From a bacterium (GTDB taxonomy: Bacteria > UBA8248 > JACPRG01 > G963555815), in assembly GCA_965261595.1 (NCBI GenBank), contig CBDHDG010000006.1, positions 480,001-544,000 of the forward strand: a stretch of 64,000 bases of DNA. The letters are read 5' to 3'. Shown one piece after another: positions 257 through 46,935 of the stretch. Under the pieces are notes generated by a model. The model ran no database searches and was not told where the DNA came from. It saw only the letters and a list, made by a program, of their open reading frames with translations. The number at the start of each line of letters is the position of its first letter. The stretch's first letter is position 1. The position numbers and the translations under genes were made by a program.

Positions 257-1366
257 TCAGGCCACACGCACGATGGCGGCCACGGTCCCCCCGCCGGGCG
301 GCCCCTGGTGCTCCGCGCCGCCGGAAACGTAGACCATCGAGTCTCCCACAATCGAGGAGATGACGGCGTTGACGGCGGCCCGCGCGTGGCGGGTGCTGTT
401 GATGTCGGAGTCGTCCAGCATGGTGTGCCGGCGGCCGCGGATTCGGCCGTCCGGGCTGGCCTCGCACTTGGCCAGGATGTTGACGACGCGCTCCCGTTGC
501 TCGGGCGACGGGCGCCAGTCGAAAGAGATTCCGGCGTTCTCCAGCGCGGCCTTCACCGCGTCGCCGTCGATGGCGTCCCGCATGACGCTGTGGCCGATGA
601 CGAGGTCCCCGCCCCACGAGGCGCTGTTGCCCAGCACCATGATCTCGTTGCACAGGAGCTCGATGCCCGAGGAGGTGGAGGCCACGCCCGATGAAAGGGA
701 CCAATCGCGGCCGATCACCTCGTCGCTCAACCGCCCTTCCGAGATTTCGCCCGTCACAAGGCCGACGCCCAGGGCCGAAGCGGCGCGCGAATACCCCATG
801 GATTTGTACGTGTTGTCCGAGCAAACGGTCTTTCCCCGCCGCGCGGCCTCCTCGGCCTGGTCCGTGCTGATCAAGGGGGTTTTGACCTGGACGAAATGGA
901 GGTCTCCGGCGCCCTCGATCCCCGCCTCCCCCATCAGGCGGCGCACCACGGCGGCCGTCTCGCGCACCTGCGCCATGCGGCCCATCTCCTCCGGGAGGAA
1001 ATCGCGCGTATGCCCGGAGGCCATGGCCAGGCGTTTTTCGCCGTTGCCCCCCCCCTCCCCCCCTTCCGGCGACTTGGCGAAAACGGTGAAATGCGGACTC
1101 ATGACCCCTTCGGTTCCGCCCGACATGATCAGGGCGATCCGCTCGCCGGTTTCTTCGCGCGAGATCCCGAGACACCGGCCGAAATAATCCGCCAGAACGA
1201 AATTGCTGAACCCGCGCGCGAAATCGTTGACGCAGCCGTTCCCCTCGGTCTTTCCCATGATGCAGACAACGTCCTCCGCCCCGCACCGGCCGCTGTCGAT
1301 CAGCTCGACGACTCCGCTGATGTCGTCCGGGGACGCCATCGGCACGCGAAAAACCTGTGCCTGCAT
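257..1366 (-). CDS. atzD: Cyanuric acid amidohydrolase (AtzD/barbiturase ring-opening amidohydrolase family)
   Basis: Motifs [55 protein letters not shown]. Confidence 0.9.
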
Positions 1367-1450
1367 ACCTTCGCTCTCCTTTTCCGTCGGGTAAAAAGGC
1401 CCCGGAAAGGCCCGGGCGCGCTCACATCGGATGGGACGCGGCGGTTGATC

Positions 1451-2068: not shown

Positions 2069-2252
2069 AGAGGCTGAAATTTCCAGTCAGGGTTTACAGG
2101 AGGAGAAGTCACTCAGGCGCCGCCGACGCCTTGAGCCGGCCGATGATTCAGCCCATATCCCGTGATGGAAGCAAACGTTCTCATCGCCATGGAAGTCAGA
2201 CTTTTCGAATAAGGGTATCCGTCCGTGCCGACCTCTCGAAAAGGAGCGTCTC

Positions 2253-3659
2253 ATGTTCTTCGAACAAGTCGTACGCCTGGAAACCGGCTGCGTCTCCTAT
2301 GTATGCGGTTGTCCCGGGGGCGGTGAGTGCGCGGTGATCGACCCGCTCTGGGACCCGGCGCCGTACGCACGCATCGCCCAATCTCAAGGCGTATCCATCC
2401 GATACGTCATCGACACCCATTCCCACGCAGACCACGTCTCCGGAGCCCGGCGGCTCGCGCGGCTCACGGGCGCCGAGCTTATCCTTCACGAACTGGCCGA
2501 AATCGAGTATCCCGCACAGCGCGTCAAAGACGGCGACACATTCCGGATGGGATCCGTCCGGATGGAGATCCTCCATACGCCGGGCCACCGGCCGGAGCAC
2601 ATCATCGTCGCCATCACCGATCTCAGCCGCACGCCCGAGCCCTGGATGATCTGCACGGGCGATTTCGTTCTCGTCGGCGACATCGCTCGGCCCGATCTGG
2701 CCCAATCCGCCGCGGAGGGCGCGGGGGAGCTGTTCGACAAGGCCCTGCCCCGCGTCGCCGGGCTGCCCGACCACGTCGAGGTCTACCCGGGCCACGTGGG
2801 GGGCTCGACGTGAGGACGCTCGCTCAGCGGCAAGTTTGCCACCACACTCGGATTTGAGCGCCGCCACAACGCGGCCTTCCAAATGAAGAAACGCGACGAC
2901 TTTATCCGCCACATGTCCGAGGGACTGCCCGATCGGCCGGCGAATATCGCGCGGATCGTCGCCAACAACCAGGGAACCCTCCCCCTGACCCTGGAGGCGC
3001 CCGAGGCCCGGCCGGTTCCGCCGTCGGAGGCGTCGCGGTGGATGGAGGAGGACCCGGCGATCCGGATGATCGACATGCGCGAACCCGCCGGCTTCGGCGA
3101 GGCCCACGTCCCCGGGGCGGGAAACCTCCCGATCTCCAGCGCCGAGTTCGAGCAGCGGGCCGGGTGGGTCTTCGACCCCGACACCCCGTTCCTCCTTCTC
3201 GGCGAAAACGACCGCGACGCCCGGCGAGCATCGCACAAGTTGGCCTTTGTGGGACTGGACAGCAACGTTCGGGGATTCATCCCGGGCGGAATGCCGGCTT
3301 GGCGCGACGCGGGACTTCCCTCCGCGTCCCTTGACCAGATCTCCGTCGAGGGGCTTCATGAGCACCTGCGCGGTGACGCCGGGAACGGCTGGAATATCGT
3401 CGACGTGCGAGAGGACGAGGAGTGGACGGAAGGGCACATCGAGGGGGCCCACCACATGAATTTCAAGAAGATGGGCAAAGCGGATCTTGACCTGCCTTTC
3501 CCCCGCGGGGAGACCCTGGCCGTCATCTGCGGCGGGGGGATACGCAGCAGCACCGGCGCAAGCCTTCTTCAGGGACACGGCTACTCCGGCGTGATCAACG
3601 TCGTGGGCGGCATGAGCGCGTGGCGCGCCGCCGACTACGAGGTCGCCACGGAGAATTGA
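2253..3659 (+). CDS. Persulfide dioxygenase (MBL fold)-rhodanese-rhodanese fusion, CstB-like; predicted selenoprotein (TGA 2811-2813 = Sec187), 468 aa
   Basis: ORFs 2253-2813 and 2883-3659 are in the same frame with one stop between them. Reads PGHVGGST-U-GRSLS, matching the family motif PGHGAGSxCG. Also HSHADH, HTPGH, TGD, and C-terminal rhodanese ICGGGIRS. Confidence 0.88.
2814..2843 (+). promoter_or_regulatory. Putative bacterial SECIS element
   Basis: Hairpin GGCAA-GT-TTGCC (2829-2840) with apical GT 21-22 nt after TGA, similar in shape and spacing to the E. coli fdhF SECIS (GCAG-GT-CTGC). Confidence 0.65.
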
Positions 3660-3750: not shown

Positions 3751-5307
3751 GTGGTCACCTATGGATTCGTCATCGACAACCGGAAGTGCATCGGGTGCCA
3801 CGCCTGCACGGTCGCCTGCAAGGCCGAGAACGAGGTCCCCATCGGGGTGAACCGGACTTGGGTCAAGTACATCGAGAAGGGGGAGTTTCCCCTCACCCAG
3901 CGGAAGTTCTCCGTCATGCGGTGCAACCACTGCGCCGACGCCCCCTGTGTGGAAATCTGCCCGGTGACCGCCCTCTACACCCGGCCCGACGGAATCGTGG
4001 ACTTCGACAGCCAGCGGTGCATCGGCTGCAAGGCGTGCATGCAGGCGTGTCCCTACGACGCCATTTACATCGACCCGAACGATCAGACCGCCGCGAAATG
4101 CAATTATTGCTCCCACCGGACGGACGTCGGCCTCGCGCCCCCCTGTGTCACCGTCTGTCCCACGCACGCCATCATCTGCGGCGACCTGGAGGACCCGGGA
4201 AGCGAGATCGCGGGCCTCGTGAACCGCGAGGCGGTCCAGGTCCGAAAACCCGAGAAAGGGACGGACCCGAAGCTTTTCTACATCGAAGGGGACGCCGCTT
4301 CTCTCGACCCTACAGCGGCCTCTCCCGCGGACAGCTATATGTGGAGCCAGGGCGGGGGGGGCGGGGGGGAGACGCTCGAAACGCCCCGCGCCCTTTCCGG
4401 GGGGGGGGCGGCCGGTCCAGACCCCGCAAGCGGACTCGCCGGGCGTCTGGGGACCCTCGCCCGGCGCGTCTACGATGCGCCCCGTGAACAGATGGTCTGG
4501 GGGTGGAAGGTTTCTTTATACATCCTGACGAAGGCCGTCGCGGCCGGGGCGTTCGCCATCCCGCTGTTGGCCTTCGGCCCCGGCCGGCCGCCCGGCCCGA
4601 TGGGGTGGACGGGCGCCCTGCTCGGCCTCATCTTCCTCGGGCTGACCGGTCTCCTTCTCATCCAGGATCTTCGCCGGATGGACCGCTTTCTCTACATTTT
4701 CCTTCGCCCCCAGTGGAAGTCGTGGCTGGTCAAAGGGGGGTTTGTGTTGTTCGGGTTCGGCGGGGTGATCGGCCTGTGGCTCATCAGCGGAATCCTGGGA
4801 GGACGCGCCTTCCAGTCCGCTTTGACCTGGCCGGGGGTCGCCCTGTCTTTTCTGGCGGCCGTATACACGGCCTTCCTGTTCGCGCAGGCCAAAGGGCGGG
4901 ATTTCTGGCAGAGCCCGCTCCTATCGGTCCACATGCTCCTCCACGCGGTTTTGGCCGGGGGGGCGGCGTTGCTCCTGTTCAGCCCGTTCTTTCCGGCGGC
5001 GGCCGGCGACCGGTTGAAGGAGATCCTCCTGGGGGGGCTCGGGGTGAGCTTCCTGGCTTTCATGGGGGAGCTTTTCTTCCCCCACCCGACAAAAGACGCG
5101 CGCGCCGCGGCCCAAATGATCCTGCGCGGTCCCGGCGCGCTCCTGTTTTGGGGAGGCGTCGTGGCCCTGGGTCACGCCGCGGCCGCCGGCCTGCTGCTCT
5201 CGGGAATCGGCGGCCTCGAAGTCCTCAGCGCTCCCTTGATCCTGGGCGGGGTCTTCGCCGCCGCCCACCTCTGGGTGACCATTCCGCAGCGGATCCCGCT
5301 GAGTTGA
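3751..5307 (+). CDS. Fused 4Fe-4S subunit (NrfC/PsrB/DmsB-like) + NrfD/PsrC membrane anchor
   Basis: CIGCHACTVAC, CNHCADAPCVEICP, CIGCKACMQACP, KCNYC...PCVTVCP, then a Gly-rich linker and a multi-TM domain with DLRRMDRF and SWLVKGG motifs. Confidence 0.9.
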   Translation: MVTYGFVIDNRKCIGCHACTVACKAENEVPIGVNRTWVKYIEKGEFPLTQRKFSVMRCNHCADAPCVEICPVTALYTRPDGIVDFDSQRCIGCKACMQACPYDAIYIDPNDQTAAKCNYCSHRTDVGLAPPCVTVCPTHAIICGDLEDPGSEIAGLVNREAVQVRKPEKGTDPKLFYIEGDAASLDPTAASPADSYMWSQGGGGGGETLETPRALSGGGAAGPDPASGLAGRLGTLARRVYDAPREQMVWGWKVSLYILTKAVAAGAFAIPLLAFGPGRPPGPMGWTGALLGLIFLGLTGLLLIQDLRRMDRFLYIFLRPQWKSWLVKGGFVLFGFGGVIGLWLISGILGGRAFQSALTWPGVALSFLAAVYTAFLFAQAKGRDFWQSPLLSVHMLLHAVLAGGAALLLFSPFFPAAAGDRLKEILLGGLGVSFLAFMGELFFPHPTKDARAAAQMILRGPGALLFWGGVVALGHAAAAGLLLSGIGGLEVLSAPLILGGVFAAAHLWVTIPQRIPLS

Positions 5308-5317
5308 GGAGCGCCGA

Positions 5318-8206
5318 ATGAGCCACCAACCGAAACCCGGCTGGATCGAGCGAACGGCGGAGAGCCTCGGATGGATCCAACGGCTGGACCCGCCGCCCGC
5401 TCCCCGGGAAAAACGCCTGGCGCCGGAGGGGAAATTCGAGCAATATCCGCCCACCGACCGCTGGGGGGACTGGGCCGACCCGGTTCCGCCGGGCACCGAA
5501 GCGGACGCCTCGCGTGAGTGCGTCCTCATTCCCACCACCTGCTTCAACTGCGAAGCGGCCTGCGGCCTGCTCGCCTACGTGGACAAGGAGCGCCTGGAGG
5601 TCCGGAAGTTCGAGGGCAATCCCCTCCACCCGGGAAGCCGGGGGCGGAACTGCGCCAAGGGGCCGGCCACGATCAATCAGATTCGGGACCCCGATCGCAT
5701 CCTGCACCCCCTGAAGCGGGTGGGGCCGCGCGGCGGCGGCCGGTGGGAGCGGGTCGGGTGGGACGCGGTCCTGGACGACCTGGCCGCCCGCATCCGCGAA
5801 AGCCTCACCGGGGGAAAACCGGAGGAGGTGATGTATCACGTCGGCAGACCCGGCTACGAGGGATCCGTCGAGCGGGTCCTCAAGGCGTGGGGCATCGACG
5901 GCCACAACAGCCACACTAACGTCTGCTCGGCGGCCGCCCGTCTCGGTTATCACCTCTGGCAGGGGTCCGACCGTCCTTCCCCGGACCATCAACGGTCCCG
6001 CTTCATCCTCCTCATGAGCTCTCACCTGGAGGCGGGCCACTATTTCAACCCGCACGCCCAGCGCATCATCGAGGGCAAGCTGGCCGGCGCCAAACTGGCG
6101 GTCATCGACCCCCGGCTGTCGAATACGGCCGCCCGGGCGGATACCTGGCTCGCGCCTTATCCCGGGACCGAGGGGGCCCTTCTGCTGGCCATGGCCCATG
6201 TCCTCCTGGAAGAAGACCTCTTCGACCGGGCGTACGTGGAGACCTGGGTCAACTGGGAGGAGTATCTGAGGGAGGAGGCGGGCCTGTCCGGGGCCTCCTT
6301 TGATGTCTTTCTCTCAGAAATCAAAGAGGTCTACGCGGCGTACACGCCCGAATTCGCCGAAGCGGAGAGCGGCGTCCCGGCCGCGACGATCCGGAAGTTG
6401 GCCCGGGAGATCGGCCGGGCGGGGTCCGCCTTCGCGACCCACATCTGGCGGGGGGCCGCTTCGGGCCATCTGGGGGGGTGGCAGATCGCCCGCGCCCTTC
6501 ATTTCCTGAGCGTCCTGACCGGCAGCGTAGGGACCCCCGGGGGGACCGCGCCGGCGTCCTGGAACAAAACGAAACCGGCGCCCTTCGACACACCCCCCGC
6601 CGTCAAGTTCTGGAACGAGCTGATCTACCCGAGGGAATACCCCCTCTCGCATTATGAGATGAGCTTCCTCCTCCCCCACTTCCTGAAGGAGGACCGGGGA
6701 AAGCTCAGCGTATACTTCACCCGGGTCTACAACCCCATCTGGACCAACCCCGACGGCTTCACGTGGCTCGAAGTCCTCAAAGACGAGGAGAAGATCGGTC
6801 TGCACGCCGCAATGACGCCGACCTGGAACGAATCGGCCCTGTTCGCCGACTACGTCCTGCCCATGGGGCTCGCGGGCGAGCGTCACGACGTCCAGAGCCA
6901 GGAAACCCATTCGGGGATCTGGGTCTCGTTCCGCCAACCCGTCCTGCGGGTGGCGATGGAGCGGATGGGCAAACCCGTCCAGTGGACCTACGAGGCCAAC
7001 CCGGGGGAGGTGTGGGAAGAGGATGAGTTCTGGATCGAGCTCTCCTGGCGGATCGATCCGGATGGGGATCTCGGCATCCGGCGTCATTTCGAATCCCCCT
7101 ACCGGCCGGGGGAGAAGGTCACGGTCGAGGAATACTACCGCTGGATGTTCGAGAACAGCGTGCCGGGACTCCCGGAGAAGGTGGCCGAAGAGGGCCTCAC
7201 CCCCATCGAGTACATGAAAAAGTACGGGTCCTTCGAGATCCAAAAGGACATTTTCCAAAAGTACACCCGGCGGCTTCCGGCCGAAGAGATGGAGGGCGCG
7301 TCCATCGATCCCCGGACCCGCGTGGCTTCCAGAGACGGCCGGCCGATCGGCGTGGAGATCGCCGGGCGGGTCCTCGAGGGATTTCCGACCCCCTCGCGAA
7401 AACTGGAGTTCTATTCCTCCACGCTGAAGGATTGGGGCTGGCCCGAGCACGCCCTGCCCGGATACGTCTTCAGCCACATCCGTGAAGAAGACATGGGCCC
7501 GGGGGAGCTCATCCTCCTGCCGACCTTCCGCCTGCCCACGCTCATCCACACCCGGTCGGCCAACGCCAAGTGGCTGCTTGAGATCTCCCACCGGAACCCG
7601 GTCTGGATGCATCCGAAGGACTGCGGCCCGTTCGGGCTGAAGACGGGGGACCTGGTCAAGGTCCACACCGAGATCGGGTATTTCGTCAATCGCGTCTGGG
7701 TCACCGAGTCCATCCGGCCGGGGGTGATCGCCTGCTCCCACCACGCGGGCCGGTGGCGGCTGGACGAAAACGAGGGGGGAGGGGGGCGGATGGGCGCCGC
7801 CCTGGTCCGCCTGGAAGAACGGGAGAAGGGCCAATGGCTCCTCCGCCAGATTCACGGCATCAGGCCCTATGAAAGCGAGGACCCGGACACCGCCCGGATC
7901 TGGTGGCAGGACCCCGGCGTCCATCAGAACGCGGCCTTTCCCGTTCACCCGGACCCCGTGAGCGGGATGCACTGCTGGCATCAGAAGGTCCGCATCGAGA
8001 AGGCCGGCCCCGATGACCGGTACGGAGACGTCTTCGCGGACACCCGGAAGTCCTTTGAGATTTACCGCGAGTGGCTTCAGAAGACCCGTCCGGCGCCCGG
8101 CCCCGGCGGATTGAGACGTCCCCTCTGGCTGAATCGTCCCATTCCCTGCGAGCGGGACGCCTACCAATTGACCCCGGAACCGCCGGTGGACGGCCCCCAG
8201 GCGTGA
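5318..8206 (+). CDS. Molybdopterin (bis-PGD) oxidoreductase catalytic subunit, Psr/Phs/Sre/Soe-like, no Tat signal
   Basis: CFNCEAAC...NCAKG 4Fe-4S motif, SHTNVCS (Cys Mo ligand), ADYVLP, HTRS, C-terminal dinucleotide-binding domain; no RRxFLK at the N-terminus. Confidence 0.9.
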   Translation: MSHQPKPGWIERTAESLGWIQRLDPPPAPREKRLAPEGKFEQYPPTDRWGDWADPVPPGTEADASRECVLIPTTCFNCEAACGLLAYVDKERLEVRKFEGNPLHPGSRGRNCAKGPATINQIRDPDRILHPLKRVGPRGGGRWERVGWDAVLDDLAARIRESLTGGKPEEVMYHVGRPGYEGSVERVLKAWGIDGHNSHTNVCSAAARLGYHLWQGSDRPSPDHQRSRFILLMSSHLEAGHYFNPHAQRIIEGKLAGAKLAVIDPRLSNTAARADTWLAPYPGTEGALLLAMAHVLLEEDLFDRAYVETWVNWEEYLREEAGLSGASFDVFLSEIKEVYAAYTPEFAEAESGVPAATIRKLAREIGRAGSAFATHIWRGAASGHLGGWQIARALHFLSVLTGSVGTPGGTAPASWNKTKPAPFDTPPAVKFWNELIYPREYPLSHYEMSFLLPHFLKEDRGKLSVYFTRVYNPIWTNPDGFTWLEVLKDEEKIGLHAAMTPTWNESALFADYVLPMGLAGERHDVQSQETHSGIWVSFRQPVLRVAMERMGKPVQWTYEANPGEVWEEDEFWIELSWRIDPDGDLGIRRHFESPYRPGEKVTVEEYYRWMFENSVPGLPEKVAEEGLTPIEYMKKYGSFEIQKDIFQKYTRRLPAEEMEGASIDPRTRVASRDGRPIGVEIAGRVLEGFPTPSRKLEFYSSTLKDWGWPEHALPGYVFSHIREEDMGPGELILLPTFRLPTLIHTRSANAKWLLEISHRNPVWMHPKDCGPFGLKTGDLVKVHTEIGYFVNRVWVTESIRPGVIACSHHAGRWRLDENEGGGGRMGAALVRLEEREKGQWLLRQIHGIRPYESEDPDTARIWWQDPGVHQNAAFPVHPDPVSGMHCWHQKVRIEKAGPDDRYGDVFADTRKSFEIYREWLQKTRPAPGPGGLRRPLWLNRPIPCERDAYQLTPEPPVDGPQA

Positions 8207-8300
8207 GCGTCTTCGCCGGCCCGCCATGGCCCGGATGGAAGGCCCGCCCGCCCCGCCCCGCCCGACCAATCGCGGCGGGAACGGTTTGCGCGCAAGCTGA

Positions 8301-9116
8301 ATGGAAATGCTCTGGATCTATCTCCTGATCGGTCTCATTACGGGCTTTTGCTCCGGTCTGATCGGCGTGGGCGGGGGGTTTATTCTGATCCCGCTCCTCC
8401 TGCTCGCCCGCGTCCCCATGGAAGTGGCCGTCAGCACCAGCCTGGTTTTCGTCCTGTTCAGCGCGGCCTCCGGGGCGTTGCGACACGGGTTTCAAGGGAC
8501 GGTGGACCGGCGTCTGGCCGGGTCGGTCGCCCCGGTTTCGGTCCTGACCGCCTTCGCCGGCTCCCTGTTGACCGTCCGGTTCCCCACCTCCGTGCTTCAG
8601 TCGCTCCTGGGCATCTGCGTCCTGGCCGGTCTTTATCTCCTGAATCGCAAGGCCCGCCTCCAGGTGGAGCTCACCGCGACGGACCTGCCGGGCCGCTGGA
8701 CCTACGACCGGACGGTCGAGTGGGGGGAGGAATCCATTCACTATCGCCTGGACTTGAAGAAGGCGGCGGGGGTCGGCGGCGTGGTGGGTTTTCTGGCCGG
8801 CCTGTTGGGCGTCGGCGGGGGGTTCTTGATAATCCCCGCCTTCGTCGGCCTGATGGGCATCCCCCTGCGCGTCGCCATCGGAACCTCCCTCCTCACCATC
8901 CTGGCGTCCGCCTTCGTGGGGACTGTGATGCACTGGGGACAAGGAAGCATGGACCTCACCGTGGTCTGGACGACGATCCTGACCGGGATGATCGGGGCGC
9001 AGCTCGGAGCCCTCTGCGTGCCGAAAATGCAAGAGGCGGGGATGAAAATCCTGATGAACGTCCTGCTGGGACTCTCGGCGGCTTATCTATTCGTTCTGGC
9101 GGGAATCGGACTTTGA
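8301..9116 (+). CDS. Sulfite exporter TauE/SafE family
   Basis: Two GxxSGLxGVGGG repeats, AIGTSL, multiple TM helices. Confidence 0.9.
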   Translation: MEMLWIYLLIGLITGFCSGLIGVGGGFILIPLLLLARVPMEVAVSTSLVFVLFSAASGALRHGFQGTVDRRLAGSVAPVSVLTAFAGSLLTVRFPTSVLQSLLGICVLAGLYLLNRKARLQVELTATDLPGRWTYDRTVEWGEESIHYRLDLKKAAGVGGVVGFLAGLLGVGGGFLIIPAFVGLMGIPLRVAIGTSLLTILASAFVGTVMHWGQGSMDLTVVWTTILTGMIGAQLGALCVPKMQEAGMKILMNVLLGLSAAYLFVLAGIGL

Positions 9117-9200
9117 GTCCGCACGGTCTGGGAAAAAATACTGGACAGAAAAACGGCGACCCCCGAGCGGGGCCGCCGGCCACATCGGAATCCCTCCGTC

Positions 9201-9440
9201 TTACAGCGTGGCGTGCGTTCCGTCACACAGGGGTTTGTTCCCCGACTGCTTGCAGCCGCAGAATCCATACGTTTCACCCGCCTTCACTGAGTGGGTCATC
9301 GGCCGGAACGGGGTTTCCTTGTGGGAGCCGTCACAGAAGGGCTGGTTGCTGCTATGCCCACAAGCGCACCAATGAACCTCACCGTCTTTCTCGGCGGTGT
9401 GCTTGTAAGATCCTTTTTGAGCGATATTCGGCTTTTCCAT
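9201..9440 (-). CDS. CDGSH iron-sulfur domain protein (two motifs)
   Basis: WCACGHSSNQPFCDGSH and FCGCKQSGNKPLCDGTH. Confidence 0.92.
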   Translation of the reverse strand: MEKPNIAQKGSYKHTAEKDGEVHWCACGHSSNQPFCDGSHKETPFRPMTHSVKAGETYGFCGCKQSGNKPLCDGTHATL

Positions 9441-9710
9441 GAAAGGTGGTCTCCTTTTTGCTCATACACGGTCCCGGGGTGCACATAGGCCCCCGAAAAG
9501 ATGATGGACACGACTGCCGTCCGGGCAATCATATATGATGGGGTGCTCGGCGCACAACCGCCGAACTCACCGACACGGACCGGAAATTGGTGAAACGTCA
9601 AGCTTTCCGGCATTTTCCATTGTTGAAACACCTTAAGAACGCGCTTTTGCGGGGCCTCCCAGTCGGCCGGATAAGTCCGGCCGCCCTGGAATCTTCCGTC
9701 TCGCCCGACC

Positions 9711-10373
9711 TCAGGCGTGAACCGCGTCCGCCTTCTTTTCTCCGGCCTCCTGCTTCTCTTCAGCCAGGATTTCCCGGATAACGCCCTCCCGAACTTCCGG
9801 CTTCGTCCAGGTGCCCTTGTAGACGATGTTCCCCTCCCGGTCGGCGATGTACGCCATGTTGGACAGCCAACCGAAGGCCTCGTAAATCTTCTGGTCCATA
9901 CCGTCCACCAGAACCGTTACCTTCTTGATACCCTTTTGCTCGACCAGCTCCTTGGCGTAGCCCATTTTCTGCTCATACGAAGCGTGAGCTTCGTACTTGC
10001 CGAAGATCCCTTCATTCGCGTGCGGCGCGCGGACGTAGATGTTGAAAATCTCCAAATCGTCCCCGTACCTTTCGGCCAGATTTTCCATGTGCGGCACTTG
10101 CCGCCGGTACGGCGGTCACGTGATAGCGCCGAACTCGAAGAGCTGGAGCTTCTTTCCGATCAGGTCCACCGTATTGACGCGGCGGCCGTCCGTGGTCTCG
10201 AGCTGGACCGTCGGGATCTTCGAGCCGAGGGCCGCCGCGTCCTGGAATTTTGCGTACACGGCGCTCACCTTCTCGTTGAATTTTATCTTGACGAGCTTCC
10301 ACCAGTTCAGGAACAGGAACGAGTAGAACTTGCTCGGCGGGTTTCTGCCGAATTCACCTCTGGTCTGAATCAT
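9711..10373 (-). CDS. Iodothyronine deiodinase-like thioredoxin-fold protein; predicted selenoprotein (TGA 10118-10116), 220 aa
   Basis: ORFs 10116-10427 and 9711-10097 are in frame. Reads FEFGAIT-U-PPY (cf. deiodinase FGSxTUPxF), then IYVRAPH. GGAGG RBS lies 6 nt before ATG 10373. Confidence 0.88.
10088..10115 (-). promoter_or_regulatory. Putative bacterial SECIS element
   Basis: Hairpin GCGGC-AAGT-GCCGC (10104-10091) with GT 19-20 nt after TGA; shares GCGGCAAGT with the 2814 element. Confidence 0.65.
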
Positions 10374-10736
10374 CCAATCCTCCCTGTCGGCCTCGGGATT
10401 TGCATCTCCTCCGGACACTCGCCACACAAACGGCCGGCCTCAGCGAGAAACCCTGCGGCGATCACGCGAATCACCCCATTTTCCATTTTACCCCCTAAGA
10501 TTGTAAATAAGCGAGGGCGCGTAATATTCCACCCGATTGCTCCATTCGCCCGGCCGACCCGGTCCGGGAGACCCCGGCCAACCGTCCCGCCGGTTGAAGG
10601 AAAAAACCCTTTCTGTTAACATCCAGGCCGACCCTGAAGCGAAGCGCCATTCCCCACCGAGAACCTTATCCTTGACGGGTCGCCTCACAACAGGAGGGGA
10701 TGGGCAACGGCGCGCGGGAACGCGGAGATTGGAACG

Positions 10737-15825: not shown

Positions 15826-16023
15826 GTGTCTCGTAAAAGGTTTTACATTTCGTGACCCGAATGGTCCCGCTCCGGCCGGGCAAGGAGTCAACCGACCCAA
15901 ACGCCCGGCCTGCCGAAAGGTGTAAACCCGGTGTTTTCAAAGGGAATTATATAGATAAGTGGCATTTCCCCCTTAACATCCGTGCCACTTTCCTATAGGA
16001 TTATCTGTAGGAGGTCAAGGGAG

Positions 16024-17011
16024 ATGGCACACAAAGCACCTGGAAAAGCCCACCGCGTAGGACTCGGATTCGTCCAGTTCACCGAGATGTTCCCCGACAA
16101 CGAGACGGCGGAGAAGTGGATTGCCGAAGTGCGGTGGCCCGATGGCCCGCGTTGCCCAGTGTGCGACTCGGACAAGGTGCAGCACCCGACCGGTCACAAG
16201 ACCATGCCGTACCGGTGCCAAGTCAAGGGATGCCGGCAGAAGTTCAGTGTGAAGACCGGCACCGTCATGGAATCGTCGAAGGTCACCTATCGGGAGTGGG
16301 CCATTGCCGTGTACCTGTTCTGTACGAACCTCAAGGGCGTGTCGTCCATGAAGCTGCACCGGGACCTGAACCGGACTCAAAAGACGAGCTGGCATCTTGC
16401 CCACCGGCTCCGCGAGGCATGGGTGCATGACGAAGGGTTTGCGTTCACCGGACCGGTTGAAGTAGACGAGACCTACATGGGTGGCAAGGAACGCAACAAG
16501 CATGGCGTCAAGAAGATCAACAAGGGTCGTGGGCCTGTTGGCAAGAAGGCGGTTATCGGCATGAAGGACCGGGACACCAACTGGGTCACCGCCATGACGA
16601 TAGACAGGACGGACGCGCCCACGTTGCAGGGTTTCGTGCTTGGGGCAGGTGGCACCCGACGCGAAGGTGTACACCGATGACCACGGCGGGTATTACGGCC
16701 TGCCGAACCACGAGACGGTCAAGCACTCCGTGGGCGAGTACGTGGACGGACAGGCCCACACGAACGGTATCGAGTCCTTTTGGTCCATGCTCAAGAGGGG
16801 CTACCACGGGGTGTACCACCGCATGAGTCCCGAGCACCTGGACAGGTACGTGACGGAGTTCTCGGGACGCCACAATCTGCGGAATGAGGATACGGTTGCC
16901 CAGATGGTCGCCGTGTTCCGGGGCACGGTCGGACGGCGGTTGAAGTACGATGACCTGATTGCCCCCAAGCTCGCTCCGGTGCTGACCGCGCCGGGGAGCG
17001 ACGTGTTCTAG
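16024..17011 (+). pseudogene. IS1595 transposase, +1 frameshift near 16642-16645
   Basis: Zn ribbon CPVC/C..GC, VEVDETY in one frame; VYTD, HTNGIESFWS, YVTEF in the next. An extra G in GGGG separates them (may be a sequencing error). Confidence 0.88.
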
Positions 17012-19757: not shown

Positions 19758-20582
19758 ATGCGCGGCTACAAAAACCCGGACCTTCTCTGGACCCCAGACC
19801 GGCTGCGGCGGACCCTGGACGGCGGCCCCCCCCTCCCTCCTCTGATTCTGGACATCCGGACGACGCAGGATTACGTGGCCGGGCACATCCCGGGCGCGGT
19901 CCACCTGGACCTCTTCGGCCTGTCCGTCCGGCACACCGGGCCGGAATCCCTGGACTCGTTCTTCTGGATGATGGAGGGCCTGTTCGGCAACCGGGGCGTC
20001 GATCACGGCAAGACCGTCGTCGTCTACGACGAACGGACGGGCACGAGAGCGGCGCGGGCCTTCTGGTTCCTGGAGTATTTCGGGCATGAAGACGTCCACG
20101 TCCTGGACGGCGGATACGACGCCTGGGAGATGGCCGCGCACCCCGTGAGCCGCGACCCGGTGATACCCGAGGGGGCGAGCTTCAAGGCCCGGCCGGTCGC
20201 GGACCGCCTCGCCACGGCGGAGACGATCCGGAAGGGACTCGACGACGGCGGATGCGTGGTCCTGGACACCCGCACCGACGGCGAGTATCACGGAACCGAG
20301 CTCCGCGCCAAGCGGGGCGGGGCGATCCCCGGCGCCGTCCACATCGAGTGGAAGAACAACGTCGAAGACGGCGCGTACAAGAACGCGGAGGACCTCGCCG
20401 CCCTCTACGCGCCGGCCGGCGTGACGCCGGACAAGGACGTATCGGCCTACTGCCAAGGCGGGTACCGCTCGGCTCACGCCTACCTCGCCCTCAGGCTGTT
20501 GGGGTACGAAAAGGTCCGGAACTACATATCGTCCTGGGCCGAATGGGGAGAGCGCGAGGAGCTGCCGATCGAGACGCCGTAG
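19758..20582 (+). CDS. Tandem-domain sulfurtransferase (rhodanese, SseA/CysA-like)
   Basis: GHIPGA, LDGG, active loop YCQGGYRS, SWAEW. Confidence 0.9.
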   Translation: MRGYKNPDLLWTPDRLRRTLDGGPPLPPLILDIRTTQDYVAGHIPGAVHLDLFGLSVRHTGPESLDSFFWMMEGLFGNRGVDHGKTVVVYDERTGTRAARAFWFLEYFGHEDVHVLDGGYDAWEMAAHPVSRDPVIPEGASFKARPVADRLATAETIRKGLDDGGCVVLDTRTDGEYHGTELRAKRGGAIPGAVHIEWKNNVEDGAYKNAEDLAALYAPAGVTPDKDVSAYCQGGYRSAHAYLALRLLGYEKVRNYISSWAEWGEREELPIETP

Positions 20583-25914: not shown

Positions 25915-26748
25915 TCAGGAAAACCGCTTCTTGTCTGCCGTGGCTTCCATGCCCTGTTTGGTCTCGGGATCCTCGAGGCCGAGCATCGAACCGATTTGCA
26001 CTTCCATCGCCTTGAAGGCGTCCTCTGTTTTGGTCTTCAAGATTCGAGGCTGATCCAGATCCACCGGGAGGATGTCCATGACCTTTCCGGGCCTGGCCGT
26101 CATGACCACAACCCGTTCGGCCAGGAGGATGGCCTCCGGAATGCTGTGGGTGATGAACAGAATCGTCGTCCGCGTCTCTTCCCAGATTCGCAGCAGGACG
26201 AACTGCATGCGATCCCGCGTCAGGGCGTCGAGGGCCCCGAAGGGCTCGTCCATCAGGAGTATCGGGGGGTCGCTGAGAAGCGCCCGCGCCAGCGCGACGC
26301 GCTGCTACATGCCGCCCGACAGCTCGTGCGGGTAGGCCTTCTCAAAACCGTCGAGACCCGTGAGATGAAGCAGGTCCCGGGTGCGCTCGGCCGCCTGGGC
26401 CATCGGGAGCCGGCAGACCTCGGCCGTCAGCATGACGTTATCGAACACGCTTCGCCACGGAAGGAGCGTCGCCTGCTGGAAGACAAAACCGATGTCCGCC
26501 TCGGACTCCTCGATAGAGCGGCCGCTCAGGCTGATCTCGCCCGAGGTGACCGGGATGAGGCCCGCGATGAGCCGGATGAGGGTGCTCTTCCCGCAGCCGC
26601 TCGGTCCCACGATGGTGAGAAGCTCACCCTCGCCGATTTCGAAGTCCATGCCGTCCAACGCCGTGACGGAACCGGTGCGGCCCTCAAAAACCTTACAGAG
26701 CCGGCGGCATTCAATCAAAGCCGTCGCGCTTGCGGCCACCATGAACAC
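25915..26748 (-). pseudogene. ABC ATPase with in-frame TAG (26307-26305) in the signature motif
   Basis: GPSGCGKS, LSGGM*QRVALARAL, LMDEPFGALD, ITH; both ORF pieces are in the same frame. Confidence 0.88.
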
Positions 26749-26832
26749 ACCTTTTCTCTTCAGCCGGGATCTCTTTGTCGATATCTCCCGGGATTATACA
26801 TGCAATTCGGAGGATTGGCTCTTCCTCCATGC

Positions 26833-45512: not shown

Positions 45513-45643
45513 GACGTGACGGAGCCAGAGGAATAAGTCTGTGCCGATTTCCTGTGAGCGTGGCGGTAGAGTTGGGTTCCCCCGCTCTAGGGTTTTGTTG
45601 GACACTCGATTGATCCATGATTCATGGAGAAAGGGGTGTCGCG

Positions 45644-46030
45644 ATGAACGAACAAAAGCAAGAGGGGGCTTTGGCGGAGGGCGCCCGCAGGGCGAACGGA
45701 GCCAAGGCCCCAGGGCATCGCAGTGAGCGGGGTCGGTTCTCCTGCCAGCGCAAGCGGGAGGCGGTCCTGCGTCTTTTGCGGGGCGAGAGCCTGGAGACGC
45801 TCTGCCGCGAGTTGGGCACGACAGCGGCTCGGCTTTCCGCCTGGCGCGAGGCGTTCCTTCGCGGGGGCGAGGCGGCACTCAAAGCCCGCCCGGCGGATGA
45901 GCGGGACGAGGAGAACGCCCGGCTCAAGGCCAAGGTGGGCGAACTCACGATGGAGGGCGAGGTCCTGCGGGAGAAGATCGACCGCCTGGAGGCCGGCCGC
46001 CCTTTAGCCGGCAGGAGGTGGAGGCGATGA
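45644..46030 (+). CDS. IS3 OrfA (HTH)
   Basis: RKREAVLRLLRGESL..LSAWR, coiled coil RLKAKVGEL. Confidence 0.85.
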   Translation: MNEQKQEGALAEGARRANGAKAPGHRSERGRFSCQRKREAVLRLLRGESLETLCRELGTTAARLSAWREAFLRGGEAALKARPADERDEENARLKAKVGELTMEGEVLREKIDRLEAGRPLAGRRWRR

Positions 46031-46935
46031 GTCAGGCCCGCTTCACCTCCACGGGCAGAGCCTACGGCCTGAAGCGGGTGTGCGCCCTTTGGGGCTTGGC
46101 GCGCTCCACGGTCTACGCGCAACGGCGGCGAGAGGCGGTCCCCGTTCATGAACGCCCCACGCCCAATAAGCGCGGCCCTGTGGGCCCGTGCACCGATGCG
46201 GAACTCCTCGGCCACATCCGGCAGGTCCTGGAGGACTCTCCCTTCCATGGCGAGGGCTACCGCAAGGTGTGGGCGAGGCTGCGCTTCGCGGGCATCCGCA
46301 CCAGCAAGGAGCGGGTGCGTCGCCTGATGCGGGAGGCGGGGCTTCAGGCCCCCCACCGGGTGGGCAAACCCCGAGGTCCCAAGGCCCACAACGGGACCAT
46401 CCGCACCGAGCGGCCCGACCGAATGTGGGGCACGGACATGACGACGACGGTGACCACCGAGGAGGGGATGGCCTCGGTGTTCGTGGCGGTGGATCACTGC
46501 TCGGTGGACTGCGTGGGGATCCATGCGGCCAAGAGCGGCAACCGCTTCGAGGCCCTGGAGCCGATCCGGCAGGGGGTCGCCGAGCGCTTCGCCGGCTTGG
46601 AGGCGGACGTCGCCGAGGGGCTTAAAGTTCGTCACGACCACGGCCCCGCCTATCTGTCCGATGACTTTCAGCGGGAGATCGCCTACCTGGGCATGACCAG
46701 TTCGCCCAGCTTCGTGCGGGCGCCCGAGGGAAATGGCTACTGTGAGTGGTTCATCCGCATCTTGAAGGAGAATCTCCTGTGGGTGCGCTCTTTCGCCACC
46801 GTAGAGGAACTGCGGTGGGCGCTGCTTGAGTTCAAGAACCTGTACAACCATCATTGGATTCTCGAGGGCTACGGCTACCGAACGCCGGCCCAGGCAAGGC
46901 AGGAAAAACTCGCTCAAGTTGCGGAGGCCGCATGA
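46027..46935 (+). CDS. IS3 OrfB DDE transposase
   Basis: GYRKV, WGTD, RHDHG, NGYCE..LKE, YN; ATGA overlap with orfA. Confidence 0.9.
   Translation: MSQARFTSTGRAYGLKRVCALWGLARSTVYAQRRREAVPVHERPTPNKRGPVGPCTDAELLGHIRQVLEDSPFHGEGYRKVWARLRFAGIRTSKERVRRLMREAGLQAPHRVGKPRGPKAHNGTIRTERPDRMWGTDMTTTVTTEEGMASVFVAVDHCSVDCVGIHAAKSGNRFEALEPIRQGVAERFAGLEADVAEGLKVRHDHGPAYLSDDFQREIAYLGMTSSPSFVRAPEGNGYCEWFIRILKENLLWVRSFATVEELRWALLEFKNLYNHHWILEGYGYRTPAQARQEKLAQVAEAA

Follow-up and report, generated by a model that had tools for sequence, protein, structure and literature searches.

Within a stretch of 64,000 nucleotides (nt) of bacterial DNA (positions 480,001 to 544,000 of contig CBDHDG010000006.1, assembly GCA_965261595.1; "the window" below is this whole stretch, numbered from its first letter) we found that positions 2253–3659 very probably form one gene for a persulfide dioxygenase (PDO)–sulfurtransferase of the CstB type, in which a UGA codon at 2811–2813 would be decoded as selenocysteine (Sec), directed by a hairpin of the kind known as a bacterial Sec insertion sequence (bSECIS). 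Comparison with homologs establishes that this UGA stands in place of an otherwise invariant Cys and has been kept as UGA across a large multi-phylum clade, and that selection acts on both the reading frame and the hairpin. Most likely, the CstB-type enzymes have a genuine selenoprotein form that is widespread and has until now escaped annotation; NCBI and JGI annotate the halves as 'MBL fold metallo-hydrolase' (MBL, metallo-beta-lactamase) or 'hydroxyacylglutathione hydrolase'. The features of the gene are the following:

2241..2246, + strand: Shine-Dalgarno-like AAGGAG, 6 nt ahead of ATG 2253, read from the sequence
2253..3659, + strand: whole gene, PDO (MBL fold), middle rhodanese-homology domain and C-terminal rhodanese, with one predicted Sec codon; 468 codons plus stop
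2418..2420, + strand: His56 codon, predicted Fe(II) ligand (CstB H56), from the alignment to 3r2u and the ligand list of PMC12934615
2586..2588, + strand: His112 codon, predicted Fe(II) ligand (CstB H119), from the same alignment and ligand list
2661..2663, + strand: Asp137 codon, predicted Fe(II) ligand (CstB D145), from the same alignment and ligand list
2811..2813, + strand: in-frame TGA, read here as Sec (U187), then Gly188; predicted counterpart of CstB C201-G202, from Cys homologs, TGA loci and short relatives
2826..2843, + strand: candidate bSECIS hairpin, stem 2827-2832 pairing with 2837-2842, loop AGUU at 2833-2836
3528..3530, + strand: TGC codon of Cys426, predicted active-site Cys of the rhodanese (CstB C408), from the alignment to 3r2u

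The TGA codon and its counterparts in homologs

The frame that begins at ATG 2253 is open until the TGA at 2811–2813, and past this codon the same frame runs through 23 open codons, GRSLSGKFATTLGFERRHNAAFQ, to ATG 2883, which serves gene callers as the start of a second open reading frame (ORF). The true stop of the read-through frame is the TGA at 3657–3659. This bears out a preliminary description of the same DNA, according to which one in-frame TGA links an MBL ORF to a rhodanese ORF and the 23 codons after it are open. By direct reading we found no purine-rich stretch upstream of the internal ATG 2883 that would be comparable to the Shine-Dalgarno sequence of the gene. Pfam places Lactamase_B at residues 13–149 of the read-through protein and recognizes two further stretches as rhodanese, and no NCBIfam family scored above its cut-off for this protein.

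At the column of the TGA, all 119 full-length homologs listed have Cys (117 recognized by one pattern and 2 by a looser one). These listed Cys forms are 40–53% identical to the query, with none above 53%, and when 26 of them were aligned the column Cys and the rhodanese Cys were both invariant and the alignment crossed the TGA unbroken. The closest relatives, on the other hand, appear in the databases as short proteins: a search for these gave 1222 matches with E-values of 0.001 or less, and 119 of the best 120, which we examined, stop exactly at ...PGHxxGST, one residue ahead of the TGA column, the remaining one being a contig-end fragment that reads on with Cys at the column. The short relatives are 59–91% identical to the query, i.e., nearer to it than any Cys form listed.

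A genomic scan, made with an alignment of 85 short relatives plus the query against one genome per species, returned at least 588 matching stretches, 568 of them relatives, and the best 80 were kept (L001–L080). All 80 of these loci have TGA at the column, and TAA, TAG or a Cys codon occurs there in none; in every one the frame continues as GR(V/S)(T/L/S)SGK..T(T/S).G(Y/F)E(R/K/Q). The loci span at least five phyla (Chloroflexota, Gemmatimonadota, Acidobacteriota, Nitrospinae and Krumholzibacteriia). Thus homologs with Cys and homologs with TGA at this column, both of which the preliminary description had asked for, do exist. Because the TGA aligns with an invariant Cys and the same TGA recurs in 80/80 related loci, the TGA-joined gene is far beyond what chance would produce, and the presence of Cys at this column in every Cys-form homolog is the signature of a Sec/Cys exchange. 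TGA is also the ordinary stop of 25 of the 41 genes of the window, which excludes a global reassignment of TGA. The gene accordingly displays the marks of a selenoprotein gene, namely an in-frame TGA against Cys in homologs, conservation on both sides of it and its retention across species.

Searches of solved structures gave two full-length matches, to a protein of Alicyclobacillus acidocaldarius (3tp9, E-value 2.8e-74) and to Staphylococcus aureus CstB (3r2u, E-value 3.5e-61). In the alignment to 3r2u, from which we took CstB numbering as chain numbering minus 24, the TGA column falls on CstB C201, as had been proposed beforehand, and the rhodanese Cys on C408; Gly184, ahead of the loop nucleophile, would be the counterpart of CstB G198, and Arg386 and Arg431 those of R370 and R413. 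The residues H56, H58, H112, D137, G184, G188, R386, C426 and R431 are invariant in both family alignments. The protein accordingly has the domain order of a CstB-type enzyme (PDO, pseudo-rhodanese, catalytic rhodanese), the His2Asp triad plus H58, and a rhodanese Cys with its Arg wall, and its mobile loop varies from that of CstB in having TGA (Sec if decoded) where CstB has Cys, with Gly after it. The rhodanese Cys was rightly described as intact (ICGGGIRS, TGC at 3528–3530), and the two halves are likewise without decay, every mapped catalytic residue being retained. An AlphaFold2 model built with 33 sequences had high overall scores (pLDDT 91.3, pTM 0.88), with weak confidence in only two blocks, residues 181–190 (the predicted Sec loop) and 141–150. 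In Foldseek comparisons it superposed over the full length on 3tp9 (template modelling (TM) score 0.87–0.88), and on CstB 3r2u over the PDO and middle domains (TMt 0.85–0.88).

The downstream hairpin, probable Sec decoding and alternative explanations

The consensus fold computed by RNAalifold from 30 sequences has a 6-bp stem and a 4-nt loop, AGGU or AGUU. Counted from the T of the TGA, positions 17–22 pair with positions 27–32, so the hairpin begins 13 nt past the TGA, and the UGA-to-loop spacing in the family consensus is 19 nt. Selection on this region was evident from codon use. The third-codon positions 18, 21, 24, 27 and 30 are invariant in the 79 unique sequences (81 in total), with the exception of position 18 in the window, and the third positions flanking the hairpin have entropies of 1.2–1.9 bits. 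Among 292 conserved, degenerate columns (median normalised entropy 0.82), the four with the lowest codon entropies are Ser192, Gly193, Lys194 and Val195. In addition, the codon of Ser192 is AGT in 80 of the 81 sequences, whereas AGC dominates the other conserved AGY-type Ser columns. The bSECIS model, as given in the available text of a recent review (PMC13188914), has a loop of 3–9 nt located 16–37 nt from the UGA, an upper stem of 4–16 bp, and a G at loop position 1 or 2 with G or U after it; the family hairpin agrees with this model in stem, loop and distance from the UGA. The energy limit of the model was reached on 60 nt (-16.8 kcal/mol), and not by the 18-nt hairpin of the window alone (-5.2 kcal/mol).

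Evidence bearing on the Sec trait of the organism came from a second gene of the window:

9711-10373, - strand: second likely selenoprotein gene, deiodinase-like with a thioredoxin fold, TGA at 10116-10118 in FEFGAITUPPY

For this deiodinase-like gene a single relative was found, P0243 (32% identical); it has Cys where the gene has U, and their alignment passes through the TGA. A hairpin is possible 14 nt past this TGA as well (GCGGC-AAGU-GCCGC, GC-rich, -9.8 kcal/mol). That two TGA/Cys pairs, independent of each other, occur within 8 kb speaks for a Sec trait in this organism. We also observed that the hairpins of both genes have GGCAAGU in common.

A number of observations weigh against Sec decoding directed by this hairpin, or against parts of it. 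The window is alone among the 81 sequences in having a mismatch in the stem: AGC for AGT at Ser192 produces C.A at 2828/2841, which leaves 4 contiguous pairs and one more beyond the mismatch, and the hairpin has -5.2 kcal/mol versus -6.3 to -9.6 kcal/mol in the 80 loci. Compensatory double changes were found in 0 of 6 pairs in the RNAalifold set of 30 sequences, with one pair alternating between G-C and G.U, and because none of the pairs covaries the case for an RNA element is one of conservation alone. Folded in isolation, the region did no better than shuffled sequences (z -0.71 and -0.67). Rfam returned nothing for the whole window at the gathering threshold, and at E-values up to 10 it gave for 2780–2900 only a chance match to an internal ribosome entry site. 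Pfam detected no SelA, SelB or SelD domains among the 48 + 47 ORFs of the 64-kb window, and ARAGORN detected no tRNA in the window and no tRNA-Sec in the flanks of L001–L060 (L061–L080 not included); there were also no Pfam matches to sel genes in the flank ORFs of the 12 of 80 loci that were scanned (L002, L005, L008, L009, L011, L014, L016, L033, L041, L047, L056 and L077). The search patterns behind the 80 loci were derived from the truncated clade, so that 80/80 is not an unbiased ratio of Sec to Cys. The window also holds a gene, for an ABC-transporter ATPase, that is cut by a plain nonsense codon (TAG), and the selenium chemistry proposed below is carried over from the mechanism of CstB.

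In the light of these points we considered whether the TGA might be decoded, yet not as Sec or not efficiently so, by near-cognate Trp or Cys read-through aided by the hairpin, or whether the weakened hairpin lets most ribosomes stop in this copy, with the gene poorly expressed or drifting to loss. Such an explanation would be in keeping with the lack of visible Sec machinery in 64 kb, with the stem mismatch peculiar to the window and with a hairpin that no covariation ties to a specific structure; we nevertheless judge it improbable, given the Sec/Cys exchange signature of the column, the second TGA/Cys pair in the same window, a loop with G and then G or U at the spacing of SelB-dependent elements, and the absence of decay in the remainder of the gene. 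Still less probable is that the TGA is a true stop and that two proteins are made, one of 186 residues with the MBL fold and a rhodanese of 258 residues starting at ATG 2883. The databases do list the halves separately (P0003, of 258 aa and 99% identical, and entries of 186 aa) and an ATG is present at 2883; against this, the stretch of 23 codons from the TGA to 2883 shows protein-level conservation in 80/80 loci and is homologous to the CstB loop and the PDO core, the ATG has no Shine-Dalgarno sequence, the 186-residue product would miss the C-terminal third of the dioxygenase domain, and in the 80 loci the stop is invariably TGA, with no case of TAA or TAG.

The idea of a pseudogene or a sequencing error, in which a Cys codon (TGC or TGT) was mutated to or misread as TGA, is close to refuted. 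A single change turns TGC into TGA, and the window does contain a nonsense-broken gene, a frame-split transposase and an IS3-type element. An identical TGA in 80/80 loci of different species and phyla is, however, not expected from this, nor is it expected that the closest relatives would all be of the TGA type, that selection would act at the RNA level directly downstream of the TGA, or that all catalytic residues would be retained in both halves.

A possible role for selenium and relation to described proteins

What is known of CstB suggests what Sec might do in such a protein. According to the available text of PMC12934615, the Fe(II) of CstB is held by H56, H119 and D145; C201-G202, at the tip of a dynamic loop 3.4 Å from the Fe(II), is a glutathione mimic; and C201 self-S-sulfonates, the sulfonate then being carried 26.8 Å to the persulfidated C408, which lies behind R370 and R413. 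The C201A and C408A variants are inactive (PMC12934615). The preliminary description had placed C201 beside the iron and had it carry sulfur to the rhodanese Cys; the first part agrees with this account, the second must be amended, the cargo being a sulfonate on a Cys persulfide and not sulfane sulfur alone (PMC12934615). Its suggestion that Sec replaces the cargo-carrying Cys gains support from a TGA at the C201 column where Cys is found in 119/119 homologs listed and TGA in 80/80 loci.

Because every key position of CstB is present and invariant in the family, we propose that the protein follows the CstB cycle, its arm bearing Se where that of CstB bears S. The hairpin 13 nt past the UGA, within the coding sequence, would direct Sec insertion as a bSECIS. 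Sec187-Gly188 would sit at the tip of the mobile loop, adjoining a non-heme Fe(II) held by H56, H112 and D137, and by analogy to CstB Sec187 would accept the sulfane sulfur from a thiol persulfide to form Se-S-H, which Fe(II) and O2 would oxidise to a Se-bound sulfonate; a swing of the loop would then deliver the sulfonate to the C-terminal rhodanese, whose Cys426 would be persulfidated, with release of thiosulfate. In both transfers Se would be a better nucleophile and leaving group than S, and near an O2-activating iron it may be more easily rescued from over-oxidation. On this analogy we speculate, tentatively, that the protein could be a new kind of selenoenzyme, with a Sec that is not redox-cycling in the manner of peroxidases and would instead carry the substrate covalently on a swinging arm ~3–4 Å from an O2-activating non-heme Fe(II), with Se-S-H dioxygenated to Se-sulfonate and passed ~27 Å to the rhodanese persulfide; the Sec form would possibly be ancestral in the multi-phylum clade, and the nested Cys forms later reversions. 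If so, nature would have tested Sec against Cys in the CstB mechanism several times over.

Among solved proteins, the best full-length relative is the beta-lactamase/rhodanese protein of A. acidocaldarius (3tp9, 34% identity), a Cys form with Cys at the aligned column. We know of no biochemical study of it. S. aureus CstB (3r2u) shares the order PDO, pseudo-rhodanese and rhodanese, the His2Asp Fe(II) triad, the mobile loop with a nucleophile followed by Gly, and the rhodanese Cys with two Arg, but it is only ~28–30% identical and its loop nucleophile is Cys, in contrast to the TGA (Sec) here; the local motif is GGSTUGR here and GAGSPCGK in CstB. BpPRF, the ETHE1-type PDO-rhodanese of Burkholderia phytofirmans (5ve3/5ve4/5ve5), is likewise a PDO-rhodanese fusion (E-value 7.7e-21); it differs from the present protein in its two-domain build and its dependence on glutathione persulfide, it superposed poorly (TMq 0.43–0.44), and it is without the CstB-specific Cys-Gly loop according to the available text of PMC12934615.

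Among published selenoproteins, SelTryp of kinetoplastids comes nearest: in the part of PMC1557815 available, its MBL fold is N-terminal and two rhodanese domains come after it, in the same order as here. SelTryp is described there as specific to Kinetoplastida, and it differs in being eukaryotic, with Sec in a C-terminal CxxU tail and a SECIS in the 3' untranslated region (PMC1557815). The window gene is not a SelTryp, as its C-terminus (...YEVATEN) has no CxxU motif and contains neither Cys nor Sec. Rhodanese-like bacterial selenoproteins of forms 1–5 (PMC13188914) share the PF00581 domain and a role in sulfur/selenium transfer; in the portion of that review available the only models they are tabulated under are those for rhodaneses (PF00581 and NCBIfam models of rhodanese type), form 1 being a UxxS protein (WP_010941598.1), and it is by this table description that we set them apart. 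The window gene does not fit a selenoprotein with Sec in its rhodanese domain either, its rhodanese codon being TGC (3528–3530) and its predicted Sec lying at residue 187 in the MBL domain. The selenoprotein family table of the same 2026 review, as far as available, has no matching entry, and the accessible parts of the BSepDB, GOS, Sargasso Sea and deep-Sep papers hold nothing relevant to a Sec family with MBL-fold and rhodanese domains. More generally, we found in the literature no Sec-containing PDO and no bacterial selenoprotein with an MBL fold, in agreement with the preliminary description, to which no characterised selenoprotein family of this kind was known; our coverage was partial and a prior description is possible.

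If UGA is decoded as Sec in these genes, a widespread selenoprotein family that gene callers now split in two would be gained, and the use of selenium in Chloroflexota, Acidobacteriota and Gemmatimonadota would prove to be under-counted. The self-S-sulfonation mechanism of CstB, proposed in 2026 (in the available text of PMC12934615), hinges on this very residue, and a natural Sec version would offer a built-in probe of the Fe-chalcogen distance and of the persulfide and sulfonate intermediates, open to Se K-edge spectroscopy, 77Se nuclear magnetic resonance and anomalous scattering. Why selenium is preferred to sulfur beside an oxygen-activating metal could also be asked cleanly of such an enzyme.

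Evolution of the probable Sec forms and the Cys forms, and genomic surroundings

A FastTree phylogeny of the 81 TGA forms and the 119 Cys forms placed all TGA forms together with 11 Cys forms in one starred clade of 92, in which the window groups with L011, L001, L002 and L003. A quick IQ-TREE phylogeny of 50 rows, made up of 4 + 20 TGA forms (without L003, which is truncated), the 11 Cys forms nested in that clade and 15 Cys forms as outgroup, recovered the corresponding clade of 35 with 100% SH-aLRT (Shimodaira-Hasegawa-like approximate likelihood ratio test) support. Here the group of the window is sister to the rest of the clade, where Cys forms are interleaved with TGA forms; the inner branches are weak, and the starred branches are compatible with a single Sec/Cys change. 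As both TGA groups have the same hairpin, we favour one gain of Sec followed by later reversions to Cys as the probable history. L005 (around 21221) and L039 (around 3729) each have an extra Cys-type CstB-like paralog (WPAHGAGSACGK) no more than 11 kb away from the Sec-type gene, and therefore both versions coexist in one genome.

Downstream of the gene in the window lie three genes whose products were classified by Pfam:

3751..5307, + strand: 4Fe-4S protein fused to an NrfD-type membrane subunit, possibly in the same operon; best NCBIfam match TtrB-like, below cut-off
5318..8206, + strand: molybdopterin oxidoreductase of the DMSO-reductase family; best NCBIfam matches dmsA/ynfE and PhsA, all below cut-off
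8301..9116, + strand: TauE/SafE-type sulfite exporter family protein (Pfam E-value 6e-49)

Among the 12 loci with scanned flanks, the pair of FeS-NrfD and molybdoenzyme genes also adjoins the gene in L011, L005, L016 and L009, and it is fragmentary in L008; genes for YeeE-type sulfur transporters are present in L005, L008, L009 and L016. Such oxidoreductase and sulfite/thiosulfate transporter neighbours in some genomes fit a role in the oxidative disposal of reactive sulfur. The flanks of L014, L033, L047 and L077 have no sulfur context; in L056 it is limited to a TauD-family dioxygenase adjoining the gene, and in L002 to a two-domain rhodanese immediately upstream of it. Among the 12 loci a connection with sulfur oxidation is hence suggested but not universal. 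A separate two-domain rhodanese similar to that of L002 is encoded in the window at 19758–20582 (+), with 3-mercaptopyruvate sulfurtransferase as its best NCBIfam match, below cut-off. In L041 a gene of the SBP56 family (the 56-kDa selenium-binding protein family; 7616–8992, E-value 4e-208) lies just upstream, and is followed by CoA-binding and 2Fe-2S genes. L050 has 22 tRNA genes in 2.4 kb (8286–10690, -), ~3.7 kb downstream of the Sec-type gene.

The ABC-transporter ATPase gene of the window (25915–26793, -) is broken by an in-frame TAG at 26305–26307 within its signature motif (LSGGM*QRVAL); this TAG is a nonsense mutation, a pseudogene or an assembly error. Insertion-sequence remnants or elements are found at 15955–17011 (+) and 45614–46935 (+), one being an IS1595-type transposase split over two frames and the other a pair of the IS3 type (HTH_Tnp_1 and rve). 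A ring-opening amidohydrolase of the AtzD/TrzD type is encoded upstream of the Sec-type gene both in the window (257–1450, -) and in its closest relative, L011 (7236–8336, -). The window is in addition rich in genes for Rieske oxygenases, UbiD decarboxylases, xanthine-dehydrogenase-type molybdoenzymes and amidohydrolases, a gene content that suggests a heterocycle-degradation region.

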